DNA of 64,000 nucleotides from Alphaproteobacteria bacterium. Lineage in GTDB: Bacteria; Pseudomonadota; Alphaproteobacteria; UBA6615. The notes beneath the pieces are model-generated. The model did no database searches and had not been told where the DNA came from. It saw only the letters and a list, made by a program, of their open reading frames with translations. The translations under genes and the position numbers were made by a program. Below, piece by piece: positions 7,684 through 53,155 of the stretch (its first letter is position 1; each line of letters begins with the position of its first letter). Where the stretch lies: NCBI GenBank assembly GCA_049601915.1, contig JBMYRB010000002.1, positions 90,553-154,552 on the forward strand, in the 5' to 3' direction.

Positions 7684-7773
7684 GCGGTTTCCACTAGGGG
7701 ATAGCCGATCGATATGCGCGGGCGTTGCCGCACGTCGCCGCATGATGAATATTCATGCCGTGCCAGAGGGAAT

Positions 7774-43959: not shown

Positions 43960-44994
<1,035 letters not shown>

Positions 44995-45066
44995 TCAGGG
45001 GTGGTTCAAGGCGCGGCCGGGGCAAGACATTTGTGTCAATGGATCGGTGATCCTTTCACCAGTAAT

Positions 45067-46209
45067 TTACGGCGCGTGCGGGCGGTTCAGATAGTCCTCG
45101 GCCTGCATTTCTATGAGCCGCGACACCGTGCGCTGAAACTCGAATGCGGTATCGCCTTTCATGTATAGCGCGCCTGGATCACCGTCGGCGCTGGCGAACA
45201 GGTTCACATGGTGCTCGTAAAGCGAATCGATCAGGACGACGAAACGCTTTGCGGCGTCACGCTCGCGTTCGTCGAGAACGGGCACGTTGTCGACCATGAC
45301 CGTGTGGAACTGGGTTGCGATAGCCAGGAAATCCGAAGCACCACGCGGTTTGTTGCACAACTCGTCGAATGTGAACCGGGCGATGCCGCGCGCAGCCTGG
45401 TGGGCATGGATGCACCGGCCCTGGACCTCGATTTCTAACGGGACCGGGTCGGCATTGTCTGTCAGGGTGGCGAAGGCGGCATCGAGCTTGGAAGTGGCGG
45501 CGCGCCCGATGGGGGTGTGCCAGACGGGCTCACCCTTCAATCGGTCAAGCCGGAAATCCGTACCGGCGCCGATATCGAGCACGTCGAGTTTCTCGATGAT
45601 CAGATCGATGAAAGGCAGAAACCGATCGCGCTGCAGGCCGTCCTTGTAGAGGTCGCGCGGTGCGACGTTGGATGTCGCGATCACCACCACGCCGTGATCA
45701 AAGAAGGCCTGGAACAAACGGCCTAGGATCATGGCTTCGGCGATATTGACGACATGAAACTCGTCGAAACAGAGGAGCCAGCTCTCGTCGGCGACGTCTG
45801 CGGCGACCTGCATCAGCGGGTCGGCGCGTTTCTCGCGCCTGCGCATTTCGTTCAGGCGTTGCTGTATCTCCAGCATGAAGGCGTGGAAATGCACGCGGCG
45901 TTTGCGCTCGACCGAGGCTGTGTCGAAGAACAGATCCATCAACATGGATTTGCCGCGCCCGACCGGGCCGTAGAGATAAAGCCCCATCGGTGGTTCTTCG
46001 TTGCGTCGGCCCAACCCGAACCGGTCTTTCCAACCCGACAGAAAGCCGTCACCTGCTGGCTGATAGCCCTTCAGCGCATGATGCAGGCTCTGGAGTTTTT
46101 CGACGGCCAATTTCTGCGCCGGGTCGCGCATCAACTCGTTCGCTTCTCGCATGTTGCGATAGCGTTCGAGCGGGGTCAGCAATTTCGAATCGGGCGTATC
46201 GTCGGGCAT
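45067..46209 (-). CDS. zapE: Cell division protein ZapE (AFG1-like ATPase)
   Basis: GPVGRGKSMLMDLFF Walker A and the AFG1 family architecture. Confidence 0.85.
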   Translation of the reverse strand: MPDDTPDSKLLTPLERYRNMREANELMRDPAQKLAVEKLQSLHHALKGYQPAGDGFLSGWKDRFGLGRRNEEPPMGLYLYGPVGRGKSMLMDLFFDTASVERKRRVHFHAFMLEIQQRLNEMRRREKRADPLMQVAADVADESWLLCFDEFHVVNIAEAMILGRLFQAFFDHGVVVIATSNVAPRDLYKDGLQRDRFLPFIDLIIEKLDVLDIGAGTDFRLDRLKGEPVWHTPIGRAATSKLDAAFATLTDNADPVPLEIEVQGRCIHAHQAARGIARFTFDELCNKPRGASDFLAIATQFHTVMVDNVPVLDERERDAAKRFVVLIDSLYEHHVNLFASADGDPGALYMKGDTAFEFQRTVSRLIEMQAEDYLNRPHAP

Positions 46210-46259
46210 GGCGGCGGTTACGTAGGCCAGCTTGGCGCCGGGCGCAACCGGCGGCGGCG

Positions 46260-47618
46260 TTATTGTGCGGCTTCGTGTGCGGCCGGGTTGGCGAACATCG
46301 CCTCCATATCACGGCGCACTTGCACCGCCTGAATGTTCGCGTCGATCTCGACATCAGCCCAGCCGACGGGTTGATCCTTGGGAACGGCACGCTTGAGCGT
46401 CACGTCGTGTGCCAGCCCGATCGGAAGTCCGCCAGCGGCGAGACTGGCCGCAGCCGGCATGAGTTTCCCATAGACCGTGAATCCGCCCTCGCCATCCAGC
46501 GTGTCGCCGGTTTGCAGGTCGCGCTTCGCGGTCGCCACGGCGTCGCCAAGGAAACCGGTCGGGGATCCTGTGGGTTCGTTGCGCAAAGCCGCACTGGCGA
46601 CGGAGATACCGAGTTCGAGCCCGATCAGGTGGTAGGGCTTCCACTGGGCGGCATAGTTGCCCGAGACATCCGTGACCAGCCCGTATTCATCGAAGCAGGC
46701 GCGGACATATTCGCTCGGCGCCTCGAACACCACATACACCCCCCAGCGCAGATCGCCGGTCACATGGCGGCCGTCGCGTTCCTCAGAGCTGATGACCTCG
46801 ACTTGTCCCTTGTGGTGCAGCTGGCCACCCTCGGCGGCAGGCCGCATTACATGCGGCAGGTCGCGGACGCCGCAGGCCGGGAAGGAGAGCCCGTCAGGCG
46901 CGGGTGTGAGCCCCGTGGCGTTGGCGACGGCGGCCATCTCGATCGCCGATTTGGTCCCGTCGAGGAACGAATTGAACATCTGCGGGTTCATGCCGCCCGC
47001 CGCGGCCTGTTCCGGCGTCAGTCCGTAATGCTCCCAAACGTCGTCCGGCGTCATATAGTGATAGCCGTCGAGATACTTTGTGCCCTTGCCGGCGGCGATC
47101 ACCTCGAGGCCGCAGGCCCGGGCCCAATCTACCTGCTCATGGATCAGCGCCGGCTGGTCGCCATAGGCTAATGAGTAGACGATGCCGGCCTGTCGTGCGC
47201 GTTCGGCCAGCAGTGGTCCGGCCAGAACATCGGCTTCCACGTTGACCATCACGATGTGCTTGCCGAATTCGCAGGCCACCAGCGCGTGGGCGATTCCGGC
47301 GGCAGGGCTGCCGGTCGCATCGATCACCACATCGATCCCGTCGGCGGCGACCAACGCCATCGAATCGTCGGTCAGATGGGTGTTGCCGCCCGACAGGGCC
47401 GCGTCGAATGTCGCGGCAGACGGGTCAAACCCGCCGACCCGCGCGCAGGCCGCACGGGCGCGCTCGGGGTCGAGGTCGGCGATGGCTAAGACATGGATGC
47501 CCGGCGTGCGTGCCGCCTGGGACAGATACATGGTGCCGAACTTACCCGAGCCGATCAGGCCAACCCGGACAGGCCGTCCGTCTTCGGCGCGCCGGCCGAG
47601 CATCGCGTGGAGGTTCAT
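46260..47618 (-). CDS. NAD(P)-binding oxidoreductase with a C-terminal SAF domain (COG4091-like, predicted homoserine-dehydrogenase-like)
   Basis: N-terminal VGLIGSGKFG Rossmann fold and a C-terminal SAF-like region. Start at MNLHAM, supported by an AAAGGA RBS. Confidence 0.6.
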   Translation of the reverse strand: MNLHAMLGRRAEDGRPVRVGLIGSGKFGTMYLSQAARTPGIHVLAIADLDPERARAACARVGGFDPSAATFDAALSGGNTHLTDDSMALVAADGIDVVIDATGSPAAGIAHALVACEFGKHIVMVNVEADVLAGPLLAERARQAGIVYSLAYGDQPALIHEQVDWARACGLEVIAAGKGTKYLDGYHYMTPDDVWEHYGLTPEQAAAGGMNPQMFNSFLDGTKSAIEMAAVANATGLTPAPDGLSFPACGVRDLPHVMRPAAEGGQLHHKGQVEVISSEERDGRHVTGDLRWGVYVVFEAPSEYVRACFDEYGLVTDVSGNYAAQWKPYHLIGLELGISVASAALRNEPTGSPTGFLGDAVATAKRDLQTGDTLDGEGGFTVYGKLMPAAASLAAGGLPIGLAHDVTLKRAVPKDQPVGWADVEIDANIQAVQVRRDMEAMFANPAAHEAAQ

Positions 47619-47695
47619 TGCAACGTCCTTTGCATTTCCCGCTATTCTATCGATGTAGCCTACAATGAATTGCATTCAAAATCTGGAGGGGAACC

Positions 47696-48253
47696 ATGAC
47701 CGACTACAACGAGGACGCGCGGGTGCCACATGTGTCGCGGGAGGATTTCCCCGCCGAGCAGGTCGGCATCTACGACCACATCATGGAAACCCGGAAGCTC
47801 GAATTCATGGCGGAACTGTTTGCGCGGATGGCCAGCAGCCCCGGCGCGCTAGAGGCGGTGGCTTCTGTGGGCGAGCATGTGCGCTTCCACAGCGTCTTCG
47901 ACGAGGTCCTGCGCGAGATGATCATTTGCACGGTCTCGAAAGAGGTCGGCAATTGGTACGAATGGACCCATCATATTCACCGGATGCCTGATGATATGCG
48001 CGCGGTCTGCGGTACGCCGGCGGCCGAGGACCTGCCGGCACCGGTCGGCCCGGTGCTGCGGTTCTCACGCATCGTCGCCAAAAACGGCAAGGCCGAGGAT
48101 GCACTGATCGAGGAAATTCGCGACACCCTGGGTGACCAGGGTCTCGTCGATCTGACGGTGATGGTCGGCTATTACCAGCTCGTCGGCACCTTCTGCACGA
48201 CGCTGCATGTGCCGATCGAGGACACGATCGAACGCACCCCGATGCCGGATTAG
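47696..48253 (+). CDS. Carboxymuconolactone decarboxylase (CMD/AhpD-like) family protein
   Basis: AhpD-like helical protein with a CxxxH-like region (ICTVSKEVGNWYEWTHH). A GGAGGGG RBS. Confidence 0.6.
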   Translation: MTDYNEDARVPHVSREDFPAEQVGIYDHIMETRKLEFMAELFARMASSPGALEAVASVGEHVRFHSVFDEVLREMIICTVSKEVGNWYEWTHHIHRMPDDMRAVCGTPAAEDLPAPVGPVLRFSRIVAKNGKAEDALIEEIRDTLGDQGLVDLTVMVGYYQLVGTFCTTLHVPIEDTIERTPMPD

Positions 48254-48260
48254 GCTCAGG

Positions 48261-49064
48261 CTACTCCGCCGCAGTCGCGCGCTCCCGCGCGAGTTCCAGC
48301 AGGCAGTCATCGTCGAGGGGTTCGATCGGGGTGAAGTCGCGGTGGGCGATCCATTCCTCGCGCTTGAACTGGCGGATATGATTGTCGACATGGCACAGGC
48401 TCAGATAGACGATCACCCGGCCCCAGGGACTGATGTTCGGCGCCGAGGCATGCACCAGGTTGGAATGGAACAGCAGCACCGAGCCCGGCTTTCCCTTCGG
48501 CGCAATCATGCCGCCTTCTTCGGCCAGCTTCGCGACGCTTTCCTTGTCCAGTGTCCACAGCGGGTATGACGTGGTGGCCAGGTCGTGCCCGGCCTCGATC
48601 ACGCCGTCCTTGTGGCTGCGCGGGATCAGATAAAGCGGGCCGTTGAATTCGGTGACCTCATCGATGAACAGCGCGATGTTCATGGCACGGGCTTCGGGCA
48701 TCTTGTCGTCGCGCGCCCAGGTGCCGTAATCCTGATGCCATTGCCAGACATCGCCGTCGAAGGCGGCCTTCCCGTTGATCTTGTACTGGTGCATGTACAC
48801 GTCGCCGTCGAGCAGCTGCTGCACCGGGCCGATCAGGCGCGGGTGGCGGCCCAGGCGGCGGAACGCCTCGTTGTAGTAATGGGCGGCAAATGCCGTGCGC
48901 ACCGCCTCGCCGTTGGATTCGCGCCAGACTTCATCACGGTCCATCGCGAAGATCTCGGGCAACTCGCCGGACAGGACGTCCATCTCCGCCTGACTGAACA
49001 CGTCGGGCAAAAACACCCAGCCTTCGGTATCGAATTGTTCGAGCTGGTCCTGATTCAATTCCAT
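48261..49064 (-). CDS. PhyH-family Fe(II)/2-oxoglutarate dioxygenase, ectoine-hydroxylase (EctD)-like
   Basis: WQWHQDYGTWARDDKMP aligns with the EctD signature FxWHSDFETWHxEDGMP. HSNLVHAS is the distal His. Start at MELNQ. Confidence 0.65.
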   Translation of the reverse strand: MELNQDQLEQFDTEGWVFLPDVFSQAEMDVLSGELPEIFAMDRDEVWRESNGEAVRTAFAAHYYNEAFRRLGRHPRLIGPVQQLLDGDVYMHQYKINGKAAFDGDVWQWHQDYGTWARDDKMPEARAMNIALFIDEVTEFNGPLYLIPRSHKDGVIEAGHDLATTSYPLWTLDKESVAKLAEEGGMIAPKGKPGSVLLFHSNLVHASAPNISPWGRVIVYLSLCHVDNHIRQFKREEWIAHRDFTPIEPLDDDCLLELARERATAAE

Positions 49065-49227
49065 GGCACGGCTCCCGGCCAATGTATTTGTCGTTCGGGC
49101 GATTATAGCTCGCATGTTGCTGACAGACGAGTAGGTGCGGGCGGTAATCCCTGCAGGGGTATCCCGGCTGGTGACGCGAGGTATTTGTCGCTAGATTCAA
49201 ACGGCTTGCTAACCGCCGGACCGACCG

Positions 49228-49578
49228 ATGCTTTCATACCTGAATCTCGCCCTCGAGCTTACCGCGAGCCCGATCGCATTGGCCGGCTATATCGGGCTTG
49301 GCGTCTACGCCACGACACCTTGGCGGGCGTTTAAGTATGCGTTTCTCTGGGGTTCGGCAGTTCAGATTTTTGCCCTGGCGCTTGGCCGGGTCTCGTTCCT
49401 CGATCTGGAAGGGCTCCTCACCCAGACCTGTCTCAGGCTTGTCGGTGCTTTGATCGTCACCATGGGTGTCTTTTATCTGTATCGCTTGATGCGCCGGCGT
49501 TCCGGCGGCAACGGGCCACGTGACGGCGCGCCTCCGACGCAGGGCCGCAAGCCGTCGCATCTGCGGCGGGTCAAGTAG
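49228..49578 (+). CDS. Hypothetical small membrane protein (3-4 TM)
   Basis: Hydrophobic segments. No homology recognised. Confidence 0.4.
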   Translation: MLSYLNLALELTASPIALAGYIGLGVYATTPWRAFKYAFLWGSAVQIFALALGRVSFLDLEGLLTQTCLRLVGALIVTMGVFYLYRLMRRRSGGNGPRDGAPPTQGRKPSHLRRVK

Positions 49579-50086
49579 TGCCTGCGTGGACGGGCCCCGC
49601 GGCAATAATGTCGCGAGGTCCCGTTCCGGTTCTTTGCGAAGCCGGCGACAATATGAAGCTGCAGGTGCCGCGGGCAATACTTCGGAAGGTGATCCGCCCT
49701 CCACCGGCGGGAAGTTCAGCCTCGAACAGGTCGGAGGCCCGGTCCGGGACATCGATTTGCGGCGTTCGGCTGTCGTTTTCCGTGACCCGGACGAAGCGCT
49801 GCTCGTTCGCGACCAGATAGACACGTTTGTCACCCACGGCGCCGAAGAGGGTCAGCCGGTCGTCGCTGGCGCCTTCGACGATGAAGTCTTGCTGGGAGAA
49901 TTCGATCGTGCCGTCCGGCATGGCGCAGGTGCCATTTGTTTGCAGCTCGTAGCCGCCCTCCAGATCGCGTGGCGGCGTTTCGACGCGCATTCTCTTGCCG
50001 GCGCTCACCACACGCAAGGAGTGCACCGCCGCGGCCAGCAGGATTGGCAAATCGATGGTTTCGCCGTCCGACAAATGAATATTCAT
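49571..50086 (-). CDS. Hypothetical protein: the C-terminal portion of a secreted protein interrupted by an in-frame TAG (see the next feature)
   Basis: In the same frame as ORF 50153..50536 and separated from it only by one TAG plus 22 sense codons. No RBS precedes its ATG. Confidence 0.45.
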   Translation of the reverse strand: MNIHLSDGETIDLPILLAAAVHSLRVVSAGKRMRVETPPRDLEGGYELQTNGTCAMPDGTIEFSQQDFIVEGASDDRLTLFGAVGDKRVYLVANEQRFVRVTENDSRTPQIDVPDRASDLFEAELPAGGGRITFRSIARGTCSFILSPASQRTGTGPRDIIAAGPVHAGTT

Positions 50087-50152
50087 CTGCGCGGTCTGAA
50101 GAACTTGGCCGAACGCCAGGTCGGTCCGGGAGAGAGCTTGCAGGAAACCGGC

Positions 50153-50536
50153 CTACACTTCGACCGAGAAGGTGCCTTCAATACTCGACGCCACAGTGCG
50201 GGGGAGGTCGTCCAGGCTGCTTTTGGCCACACCCTTGCTGATTCCGGATTGGACGGATTGCATGGCCGCGGCGGTCTCGGCACTTTGCGCGGTCATCGTG
50301 TTGAGAGCTGCATTGAGACCCTCGATCCGGGCCGGGTCCTTTGTGCCGTCGTAGTACAGGAATGCAGCGCCGGGCTTGAACATGTCGGCGGGACCTGCGG
50401 GAACTCGCTCGCTCTGACCCTGGCCATGTGCTGTGAGGGCTGGCAAAAACACGACCGCCGCGGACAGGGCCGCGGCGGTTATGAAGTAAGGGACGGATGT
50501 CCCGAGCGCGCGCAGGTGCGCGCCGAATATTTTCAT
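50153..50536 (-). CDS. Hypothetical secreted protein, the N-terminal portion with a signal peptide, ending at an in-frame TAG
   Basis: MKIFGAHLRALGTSVPYFITAAALSAAVVFLPALTAHGQ is a signal peptide. Start at MKIF; the ORF is open to 50653. Confidence 0.5.
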   Translation of the reverse strand: MKIFGAHLRALGTSVPYFITAAALSAAVVFLPALTAHGQGQSERVPAGPADMFKPGAAFLYYDGTKDPARIEGLNAALNTMTAQSAETAAAMQSVQSGISKGVAKSSLDDLPRTVASSIEGTFSVEV

Positions 50537-50550
50537 GTGTTTACGGCCGG

Positions 50551-51330
50551 TCAAATCTGACGTTCCACCATCATCTTCTTGATCTCCGCAATCGCCTTGG
50601 CCGGGTTCAGATGTTTCGGGCAGGTGCGCGTGCAGTTCATGATGGTGTGGCAACGGTACAGGCGGAACGGATCCTCAAGCTGGTCGAGGCGGTCGCCGGT
50701 TGCCTCGTCACGGCTGTCGACAAGCCACCGATAGGCCTGTAGCAGGATAGCCGGGCCCAGATACCGATCTTCGTTCCACCAATAGCTCGGGCAGGATGTG
50801 GAACAGCAGGCGCACAGGACGCATTCCCACATGCCGTCGATCTTGGCTCGGTCTTCGGGGCTCTGCAGGCGTTCGCGCTCGGGGGGCTGACTGTCGGTCT
50901 TGAGCCAGGGCTCGATCTGCCGGTACTGGGCGAAGAAATGGGTCTGGTCGGGCACCAGATCCTTGATCACCGACTGATGGGGGAGCGGATAGACCCGCAT
51001 GTCCTTCTTCGCGTCGGCGATATATTTGGTGCAGGCCAGCGTGTTGGTGCCATCGATGTTCATCGCGCACGAGCCGCATACACCCTCGCGGCATGACCGC
51101 CGGAAGGTGAGCGTCGGATCGACCTCATTCTTGATCTTGATAAGCGCGTCCAGAACCATCGGTCCGCAATCGTCGAGATCGATATGGTAGGTGTCGATCC
51201 TCGGATTTTCGCCGCTGTCCGGGGACCAGCGGTAAATCTTGAAGGCCTTGGTGTTGGTCGCGCCCGCGGGCTTGGGCCATTCCTTGCCTTCGGTCACTTT
51301 GGAATTCTTAGGCAGCGTAAACTCAGCCAT
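50551..51330 (-). CDS. sdhB: Succinate dehydrogenase iron-sulfur subunit
   Basis: Cys clusters for 2Fe-2S, 4Fe-4S and 3Fe-4S ([15 protein letters not shown]; [12 protein letters not shown]). Confidence 0.95.
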
Positions 51331-51361
51331 GTCTTAAATTCTCCTCGTCGCCGGGGTCGGC

Positions 51362-53155
51362 CTAGTAGGACCGCACCTTCGGCGGGAAGCTCTGGACTTC
51401 GTTGGTCATTGTCTGGAGGTGCACCGGGCGATATTTGAGGTCGACCTTGCCCTTCTCGTCGACCCAGGCAAGCGTGTGCTTCATCCAGTCATCGTCGTTT
51501 CGATCGGGGAAGTCTTCCCGGGCATGCGCGCCGCGGCTTTCTTCGCGCTCCTTCGCGCCGTTCATCGTGATCACCGCCTGCATCATCAGATTCTCGAGCT
51601 CGAGAGTTTCGACCAAGTCGGAATTCCAGATCAGCGAGTCATCGGACACGTTCAGATCGTCGCGCGCGCCCCAGAGCTCGTCCAGTTTGCTCGCACCTTC
51701 CTGCAAGACCTCGCCGGTGCGGAACACGGCGCAGTTGTTCTGCATCGTGCGTTGCATCTCGAGGCGCAGCTTCGCGGTCGGCGTGCCGCCAGAGGCGTGG
51801 CGCAGCTTGTCGAAGCGCGCGAGCGCCTCATCGCCGGCGCCTTCGGGAAGCGGTTCGTGCGGCGTGCCCGGTGTGACCAGTTCGGCCGCGCGCAGCGCTG
51901 CGGCCCGGCCGAAGACGACTAGGTCGAGCAGCGAGTTCGAGCCCAGTCGGTTGGCGCCATGTACCGAAACGCTGGCCGCCTCGCCGATGGCCATCAGGCC
52001 GGGCGTGATCGCCTCGGGATCGTCCTCTGTCCAGGTCCGGACTTGGCCCTGATAGGTCGTCGGGATGCCGCCCATATTGTAGTGGCAGGTCGGCAGGACC
52101 GGGATCGGCTCCTTGGTCACATCGACACCGGCGAAAATGCGCGCTGTCTCAGAAATACCCGGCAGGCGCTGGGCCAGCACGTCGGGGTCGAGATGTTCGA
52201 GATGGAGATGGATATGATCTTTCTCGTCACCGACGCCACGACCCTCCCGCATCTCGATGGTCATCGAACGACTGACAACATCGCGGCTGGCGAGATCCTT
52301 GGCCGACGGGGCATAGCGTTCCATGAACCGCTCGCCCTCGGAGTTGGTCAGGTAGCCGCCTTCGCCGCGTGATCCTTCGGTGATCAGCGCGCCGGCGCCG
52401 TAAATCCCCGTCGGGTGGAATTGTACGAACTCCATGTCCTCCAGCGGCAGTCCGGCGCGCGCGACCATCGCGTTGCCGTCGCCCGTGCAGGTGTGCGCGG
52501 AGGTGGCCGAGAAATAGGCCCTGCCGTAGCCGCCGGTCGCCATGCATACGAGGTGTCCGCGAAAGCGGTGCATGGTGCCATCGGCCAGATTCCAGGCCAT
52601 AACGCCGCGGCATTTACCGTCTTCCATGATCAGGTCGAGGGCGAAATACTCAATGAAGAATTCGGCGTTGTAGCGCAGCGATTGCTGATACAGCGTGTGC
52701 AGGATCGCGTGGCCGGTTCGGTCGGCCGCCGCGCAGGTGCGCTGGGCCGTACCTTCGCCATAGTTCGTGGTCATGCCGCCAAAGGGGCGCTGGTAGATCT
52801 TGCCCGCTTCGGTTCGGCTGAACGGCACGCCCTGATGCTCAAGTTCGATGATCGCTGGGATCGCTTCGCGCACCATGTATTCGATGGCGTCCTGATCGCC
52901 CAGCCAGTCCGACCCCTTGACGGTGTCGTACATGTGCCAGCGCCAGTCATCCTCGCCCATATTGCCGAGCGCCGCCGAAATACCTCCCTGAGCCGCCACC
53001 GTGTGGGAGCGTGTGGGAAACACTTTCGAGATGCATGCCGTTTTCAGGCCCTGGTTCGCCATGCCGAATGTGGCACGCAACCCGGCACCGCCCGCGCCCA
53101 CGACAATAACGTCGTAGTCATGGTCGATGATCTCATAATCGCCGTTGGTCGCCAT
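51362..53155 (-). CDS. sdhA: Succinate dehydrogenase flavoprotein subunit
   Basis: [14 protein letters not shown] motif and the covalent-FAD His region. Confidence 0.95.

Follow-up and report, generated by a model that had tools for sequence, protein, structure and literature searches.

Directly downstream of sdhB, in a 64,000-nt stretch of DNA from an uncultured marine alphaproteobacterium (contig JBMYRB010000002.1, positions 90,553 to 154,552; the whole stretch is called the window below, and positions count from its first letter), two open reading frames (ORFs) follow each other on the minus strand in a single frame, separated by a TAG codon and a short run of sense codons. Are these two genes, one gene that has been broken, one gene whose TAG is decoded, or an intact gene with an error in its sequence? 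A sequence-only reading had proposed one secreted protein of about 320 amino acids (aa), split by the TAG, and considered a nonsense mutation, a sequencing error and a stop that is read through. Our analysis indicates that the locus is very probably a young unitary pseudogene, which originated from a single C>T nonsense mutation and was annotated as two genes.

The interrupted reading frame and its relatives

The frame starts with ATG at 50536 and runs through 127 codons to the TAG at 50155-50153. It is followed by 22 sense codons (50152-50087, minus strand; translation AGFLQALSRTDLAFGQVLQTAQ) and then continues from an ATG at 50086 for 171 codons to a TGA at 49573-49571 on the same strand. 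All coordinates, the shared frame and the TAG with its 22 sense codons, as described in the sequence-only reading, were confirmed on the sequence. In GenBank, the 127-aa fragment is deposited as hypothetical protein MGB0571396.1 (ACPGQM_04880) and the 171-aa fragment as hypothetical protein MGB0571395.1 (ACPGQM_04875), and the 22 formerly coding codons (50087..50152) lie outside both annotated ORFs. Two adjacent ORFs are expected to share a frame by chance in one of three cases, which is little proof by itself. What proves a single gene is the homolog alignment, which continues without a break across the TAG and the 22 codons after it.

Querying with the joined translation retrieved 23 homologs; except for a few truncated entries, each is one protein of 284-307 aa. 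In the column of the TAG, 22 of the 23 carry glutamine and one carries lysine. Opposite the 22 linker codons the homologs are conserved, with A129, F131 and A134 invariant, and the methionine at the downstream ATG (Met150) is part of a conserved internal motif, Q-M-N-[IV]-[HR]. At the position of the TAG, a nucleotide alignment shows CAG in L002 and L001, the two closest relatives. They also have a stop codon (TAA in L002, TAG in L001) where the window has CAA (49636-49634).

Based on the end-to-end alignment of the homologs, the nucleotide alignment with L002 and L001, and gene order, the ancestral gene extends over 49634..50536 on the minus strand, consisting of 300 sense codons and the ancestral stop position. 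The premature TAG at codon 128 (50153..50155) replaces an ancestral CAG (Gln) by one C>T transition on the coding strand. Upstream of it remains an N-terminal fragment of 127 codons (50156..50536), and the C-terminal fragment (49637..50086) begins at the conserved internal Met150 and comprises 150 ancestral codons. The proposed size of about 320 aa needs revision: the ancestral protein was about 300 aa, and the last 21 residues result from the loss of the original stop in the window lineage alone. They are encoded by the CAA at the ancestral stop position (49634..49636) and a read-on tail of 20 codons, which is closed by the TGA (49571..49633) and reaches into the last 8 nt of the convergent gene of 116 aa. 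This 21-residue tail had no counterpart in any homolog.

When one genome was scanned for each GTDB species, seven loci emerged, all of them in metagenome-assembled genomes (MAGs) of uncultured marine Alphaproteobacteria or Rhodospirillaceae. In all seven, the gene order was sdhA-sdhB-gene-(optional FMN_bind_2 gene)-orf116-phyH-orf185-DRL, and the N- and C-terminal parts adjoined each other, exactly one codon separating the two tblastn segments. The gene lies right after sdhB throughout the clade, and in some species its start overlaps the preceding stop as ATGA. In the window, sdhA occupies 51362-53155, sdhB (50551-51330) ends 14 nt upstream of the gene, and the pseudogene is the last gene after sdhCDAB, the next gene being the convergent one of 116 aa (49228-49578, plus strand). 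The orthologs thus proved to be single uninterrupted genes. Two-gene orthologs, or a downstream ORF without fused homologs, had been named as outcomes that would speak against a split gene; the 23 homologs and seven syntenic loci showed neither. Among 1.84 billion representative proteins, a profile search detected no more than 71 relatives, most of them of 260-300 aa, indicating that the family is small and that its members are single-chain proteins. Members are 45-78% identical across species, compared with 85-99% for the neighboring genes; the family evolves much faster.

The TAG in independent assemblies and selection since its origin

Four Logan assemblies (SRR27204701, SRR28326280, SRR36426612 and SRR36426655) yielded the exact 127-aa and 171-aa products. 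Their contigs, designated lineage A, were 99.88-100% identical to the window, and the TAG was present in all that cover the site (L003-L005). Three of the four assemblies differed from the window by one synonymous single-nucleotide polymorphism at 50249, and the coverage of one was confined to the TAG and the part of the gene C-terminal to it. The same TAG was found in a sister lineage, designated lineage B (L014-L025), which has products of 127 aa and 150 aa and came from at least 13 runs of several projects. The longest contig of lineage B (L023) aligned with window positions 44647-52925 over 8279 bp at 99.2% identity, with 65 mismatches and no gaps. We conclude that this is a genuine lesion, present in both lineages. 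Since both lineages carry the TAG, it is older than their split. Lineage B keeps the ancestral TAA stop, where the window has CAA; therefore, the stop was lost later and in the window lineage only. Two JGI (Joint Genome Institute) metagenome pattern scans around the TAG, able to catch both TAG and CAG alleles, gave no match, and no intact allele closer than 78% amino acid identity was found.

We then compared lineages A and B, whose differences arose while the gene already carried the TAG, using eight genes as flanks. The target gene had about 20 mismatches per kb, with a nonsynonymous:synonymous ratio of 16:2 (nonsynonymous differences per site [pN] 0.024, synonymous differences per site [pS] 0.009, omega about 2.7), whereas the flanking genes had 2.6-10.5 mismatches per kb and a ratio of 15:27 (pN 0.003, pS 0.0165, omega 0.17; Fisher p=1.8e-4). 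The overall divergence of the target gene was 0.020, compared with the flanking pS of 0.0165. The ratio of 16:2 was compatible with strict neutrality (p=0.28), and it rejected both a constraint like that of the flanks (p=2e-6) and the gene's own historical omega of 0.21-0.28 (p 1e-5 to 2e-4). The pattern was similar in both halves, with 6:1 upstream and 9:1 downstream of the TAG. When the changes were polarized with outgroups, derived replacements were found even at family-invariant columns (A134V and V176A in B, A249V in A), and four further changes (R96Q, A112P, P140L and P156S), each in a column with at least 90% conservation among the homologs, were common to both lineages. These results show that selection has been relaxed in both halves since the TAG. 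Three-taxon dN/dS (ratio of nonsynonymous to synonymous substitution rates) alone had been unable to reveal this relaxation, and the comparison with the sister lineage was needed to see it. Recombination with a diverged functional allele was considered as a source of the excess between A and B and rejected, because an import is expected to be mostly synonymous, the opposite of the observed 16:2.

These observations suggest the following history. The ancestor of the window strain and the sister lineage had a gene for a probably exported protein of about 300 aa directly downstream of sdhB. A single C>T change converted the CAG of the conserved Gln128 into TAG, so that translation from the native start now ends after 127 residues, in the middle of a predicted helical domain. 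Thereafter the whole gene drifted neutrally, and the window lineage lost the original stop by a TAA>CAA change. We infer that the TAG came first and the stop loss second.

Predicted protein and alternative explanations

The joined translation was searched against Pfam, as the sequence-only reading had advised. There was no Pfam match for either fragment, for the joined protein or in the homologs, and the sole match in NCBIfam was a sub-threshold one to FlgM on one homolog. A profile search against PDB sequences gave no match, and neither did Foldseek against the PDB at E<=1e-3. In an AlphaFold2 model based on a 24-sequence alignment (mean predicted local distance difference test score [pLDDT] 80.7, predicted template modeling score [pTM] 0.77), residues 1-41 are disordered and include a hydrophobic N-terminal segment, helices lie within 57-148, and a hairpin (150-164) and a helix (165-186) lead to an eight-stranded beta domain (194-298). 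Residue 128 falls between helices 111-126 and 130-138, inside the helical domain, and thus neither fragment is a complete domain. What is left in the N-terminal fragment is a predicted signal peptide, spanning roughly residues 1-38, and the initial helices of the helical domain; two more helices of that domain, 130-138 and 140-148 (block-mean pLDDT about 84-88), are specified by the 22 orphan codons. The C-terminal fragment contains the hairpin, the helix and the barrel with Cys204 and Cys292, and has no signal peptide of its own. A restart at Met150 would therefore give a product without the signal peptide and two helices.

The N-terminal segment, which has K2 and R9, then YFITAAALSAAVVFLPALTA, then AHG followed by Q, resembles a Sec signal peptide, and the ancestral protein was probably exported. 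Cys204 is invariant and Cys292 nearly invariant; both are located in the predicted barrel, consistent with an extracytoplasmic disulfide. The eight-stranded domain of the model agrees with the antiparallel up-and-down barrel of 8-10 strands that marks the calycin-like fold, and the sequence has no match to the Pfam lipocalin, avidin or FABP profiles. The predicted barrel is thus similar in fold to small calycin-like beta-barrels such as lipocalin, avidin/streptavidin, FABP and the beta-barrel domain of Cap15. It differs from them in that identity is only 6-16%, with no sequence similarity, and in that the barrel is fused to a helical domain of about 90 residues without a structural match. Our best guess is that the ancestral protein was an exported small-ligand-binding protein co-transcribed with sdhCDAB.

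If the TAG were a sequencing or assembly error, the real genome would have CAG and an intact gene, and a single-base difference in a MAG is indeed the classic signature of a consensus error. However, an identical TAG occurs in the assemblies of four runs and in the 13 or more runs of lineage B, which differs at 65 positions in 8.3 kb, and the nonsynonymous excess around it is not a product of error; we regard the chance of an error as negligible. It is also very unlikely that the TAG is decoded to make a full-length protein, be it by programmed or leaky read-through, a glutamine suppressor tRNA, pyrrolysine or a TAG-to-Gln reassignment, although the TAG stands exactly at a glutamine codon, another 172 codons follow it before the frame closes, and neither lineage has lost the TAG. 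TAG is a normal stop in this region of the genome, because it ends atpG (...GAEAL*), sucB (...LLIEV*) and sdhA (...VRSY*) at normal C-termini in the same window, the sdhA product being 597 aa as in the relatives. A reassigned TAG would be unused as a terminator of conserved genes, which is not the case here. Programmed read-through would be accompanied by purifying selection downstream and by a recoded residue or signal in the homologs; neither was found. The homologs have glutamine, not lysine or pyrrolysine, at the site. The sole tRNA detected in the window was tRNA-Ser(cga), with no suppressor tRNA with a CUA anticodon within these 64 kb, and there was no Rfam match in 49000-51000. Moreover, a protein that is still needed would not tolerate neutral evolution on both sides of the TAG with hits at invariant residues, and CAG>TAG is the simplest possible nonsense mutation. 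Of the three options of the sequence-only reading, the nonsense mutation is thus supported, read-through is disfavored and sequencing error is excluded. Two other pairs of ORFs in the window that are separated by an in-frame TAG (25693/27148 and 35645/37064) were considered as interrupted genes and rejected; they are atpG with atpD and sucB with lpdA, which are normal neighbors.

The annotated ORFs raise the question of a functional fission, in which the 127-aa and 171-aa fragments would be two working proteins. Gene finders call both, both have been deposited, and an ATG is available at 50086. However, the cut lies inside the helical domain and off any domain boundary, 22 codons with two helices are lost, the C-terminal fragment holds the conserved cysteine pair yet lacks a signal peptide, Met150 is a conserved internal residue with no Shine-Dalgarno sequence before it, no relative has two genes, and both fragments are relaxed (6:1 and 9:1). 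We consider such a fission highly improbable. The absence of a Shine-Dalgarno sequence at the downstream ATG, which the sequence-only reading had used as an argument for a single gene, is correct as an observation and weak as an argument: no purine-rich motif precedes ATG 50086, and none precedes the true start at 50536 either, so that the absence does not discriminate. Shine-Dalgarno sequences are present before atpD, atpA, sdhA, sdhB and orf185. One might also suppose an adaptive loss or diversifying selection, for example if inactivation and rapid change of an exposed protein helped to escape a phage or predator that used it. The nominal omega above 1 (about 2.7), the faster evolution of the family relative to its neighbors (45-78% versus 85-99% identity) and the loss of the neighboring FMN_bind_2 gene in the lineage would fit this idea. 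Still, omega did not differ significantly from 1 (p=0.28), changes hit buried or invariant as well as variable positions, and there is no indication of surface exposure, which makes an adaptive loss extremely unlikely. A slim chance is left for a reading in which the gene is not dead, a function still being supplied by a low level of TAG read-through or by the secreted N-terminal fragment of 127 aa on its own; separately, this reading takes the intact family for an undescribed exported partner of succinate dehydrogenase in this marine alphaproteobacterial clade, combining the helical domain with the calycin-like barrel, its expression being set by a hairpin that attenuates the sdh transcript.

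Several points weigh against a pseudogene. Neither frameshifts nor indels have accumulated in the gene so far, and its frame is still open upstream and downstream of the TAG, which leaves room for residual function; an indel-free state is nevertheless expected, because divergence is only about 2%. The window-branch omega to L002 and L001, measured by three-taxon dN/dS over a long branch, is still 0.28, from which we conclude that the gene was constrained for most of its history and that the pseudogene is young. The relaxed phase rests on 18 substitutions only, the scan for a suppressor tRNA covered 64 kb of the genome only, and an omega above 1 could in principle mean positive selection instead of neutrality. 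Judging from the cut inside a predicted domain and the lost constraint, there is probably no residual function, and probably no functional product is made.

Nonsense-mutation unitary pseudogenes are an ordinary early stage of gene decay in bacterial genome reduction. The locus resembles them in its one-base stop at a conserved codon, intact syntenic orthologs, relaxed selection and a secondary lesion (the stop loss). It differs from typical cases in nothing essential; it is only very young, with about 2% neutral divergence and no indels, and annotated as two intact genes. TAG-to-Gln recoding is found in some phages and in some eukaryotic nuclear codes. An in-frame TAG that aligns with glutamine in homologs is a likeness to this system, but here TAG ends housekeeping genes, only this gene has an in-frame TAG, and there is no purifying selection. 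Unlike phage recoding, moreover, the context is a chromosomal region of tricarboxylic acid (TCA) cycle and ATP synthase genes. The locus has no bearing on the evolution of the genetic code or on recoding. It is an ordinary, apparently population-fixed pseudogene of a small uncharacterized family, and its value lies first in annotation: MGB0571396.1 and MGB0571395.1 are two pieces of the same pseudogene, and pieces of this kind give rise to spurious protein clusters (127, 150 and 171 aa) in large databases. The gene loss is also cleanly dated, with a nonsense mutation, then neutral drift and later a stop loss, and it shows that at least one free-living marine lineage can do without the uncharacterized family encoded adjacent to sdhB.

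Database fragments, neighboring genes and sequence motifs

In a large protein collection, the two deposited fragments found their own 90% clusters (127 aa; 150/171 aa). These clusters, though identical to parts of the query, lie outside the 23 homologs of the search described above. Two truncated entries from other metagenomes were also observed: P0025 (167 aa) leaves the family sequence after ...AAGEK in a frameshift-like manner, and P0023 (177 aa) ends after ...AAAVH. Both could represent additional broken members of the family, or artefacts of assembly. On the opposite strand, an antisense ORF of 346 aa (49520-50560, plus strand) overlies the whole pseudogene. Shadow ORFs are typical of GC-rich DNA, and this one was rejected as the gene, since the homologs fix the minus strand as the coding strand.

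Between the target gene and the 116-aa gene, some relatives have an FMN_bind_2 (PF04299) gene of 208 aa (8941-9567 in L001). It is present in L001/L007, L008, L010, L011 and L013 and absent from the window, L002, L009 and L012, and this patchy distribution shows repeated gene loss downstream of sdhB. The 116-aa gene and a 185-aa gene (47696-48253, plus strand) keep their order in all seven related species, with identities across these species of 62-90% and 83-95%, respectively; neither of these conserved genes had a match in NCBIfam. Between the window and L002, over 48261-51330, synonymous divergence was 0.03 for phyH, 0.17 for orf116, 0.45 for the target gene and 0.46 for sdhB. This mosaic suggests a recombination breakpoint near 49100-49600.

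The sequence-only reading had also pointed to a palindromic dodecamer, ATGAATATTCAT, at the restart. Its position is exact: it occupies 50075-50086 and, read on the minus strand, begins with the ATG at 50086. It has no demonstrable role. It is coding sequence for M-N-I-H, and the palindrome is not conserved. The closest relatives have the non-palindromic ATGAACATTCGT at this position, the palindrome being the product of two changes in coding sequence, one synonymous and one R>H. For want of conservation, a role as regulatory or restart signal was rejected. A second exact copy of ATGAATATTCAT is found at 7745-7756, in an intergenic region upstream of a dehydrogenase-like gene; the chance expectation for the dodecamer is 0.04 copies in the window, counting up to one mismatch.

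Within the codons for the signal peptide, a GC-rich hairpin of 10 bp (ACCGCCGCGG-CCCTGT-CCGCGGCGGT; 50454..50479, minus strand) is followed by a T-rich tract, 30-90 nt past the sdhB stop. Its predicted RNA fold has a free energy of -23.5 kcal/mol (z-score -3.15). The hairpin was found in all nine species-level sequences (window, L002 and L007-L013), where 98.9% of its cells were paired, compared with 33-69% in slid controls. Seven of its pairs are invariant, synonymous third positions of alanine codons included, and L009 has a double compensatory change from GG/CC to AC/GT. With covariation in this one lineage, the hairpin may act on the sdhCDAB transcript as a terminator or attenuator embedded in the next ORF.

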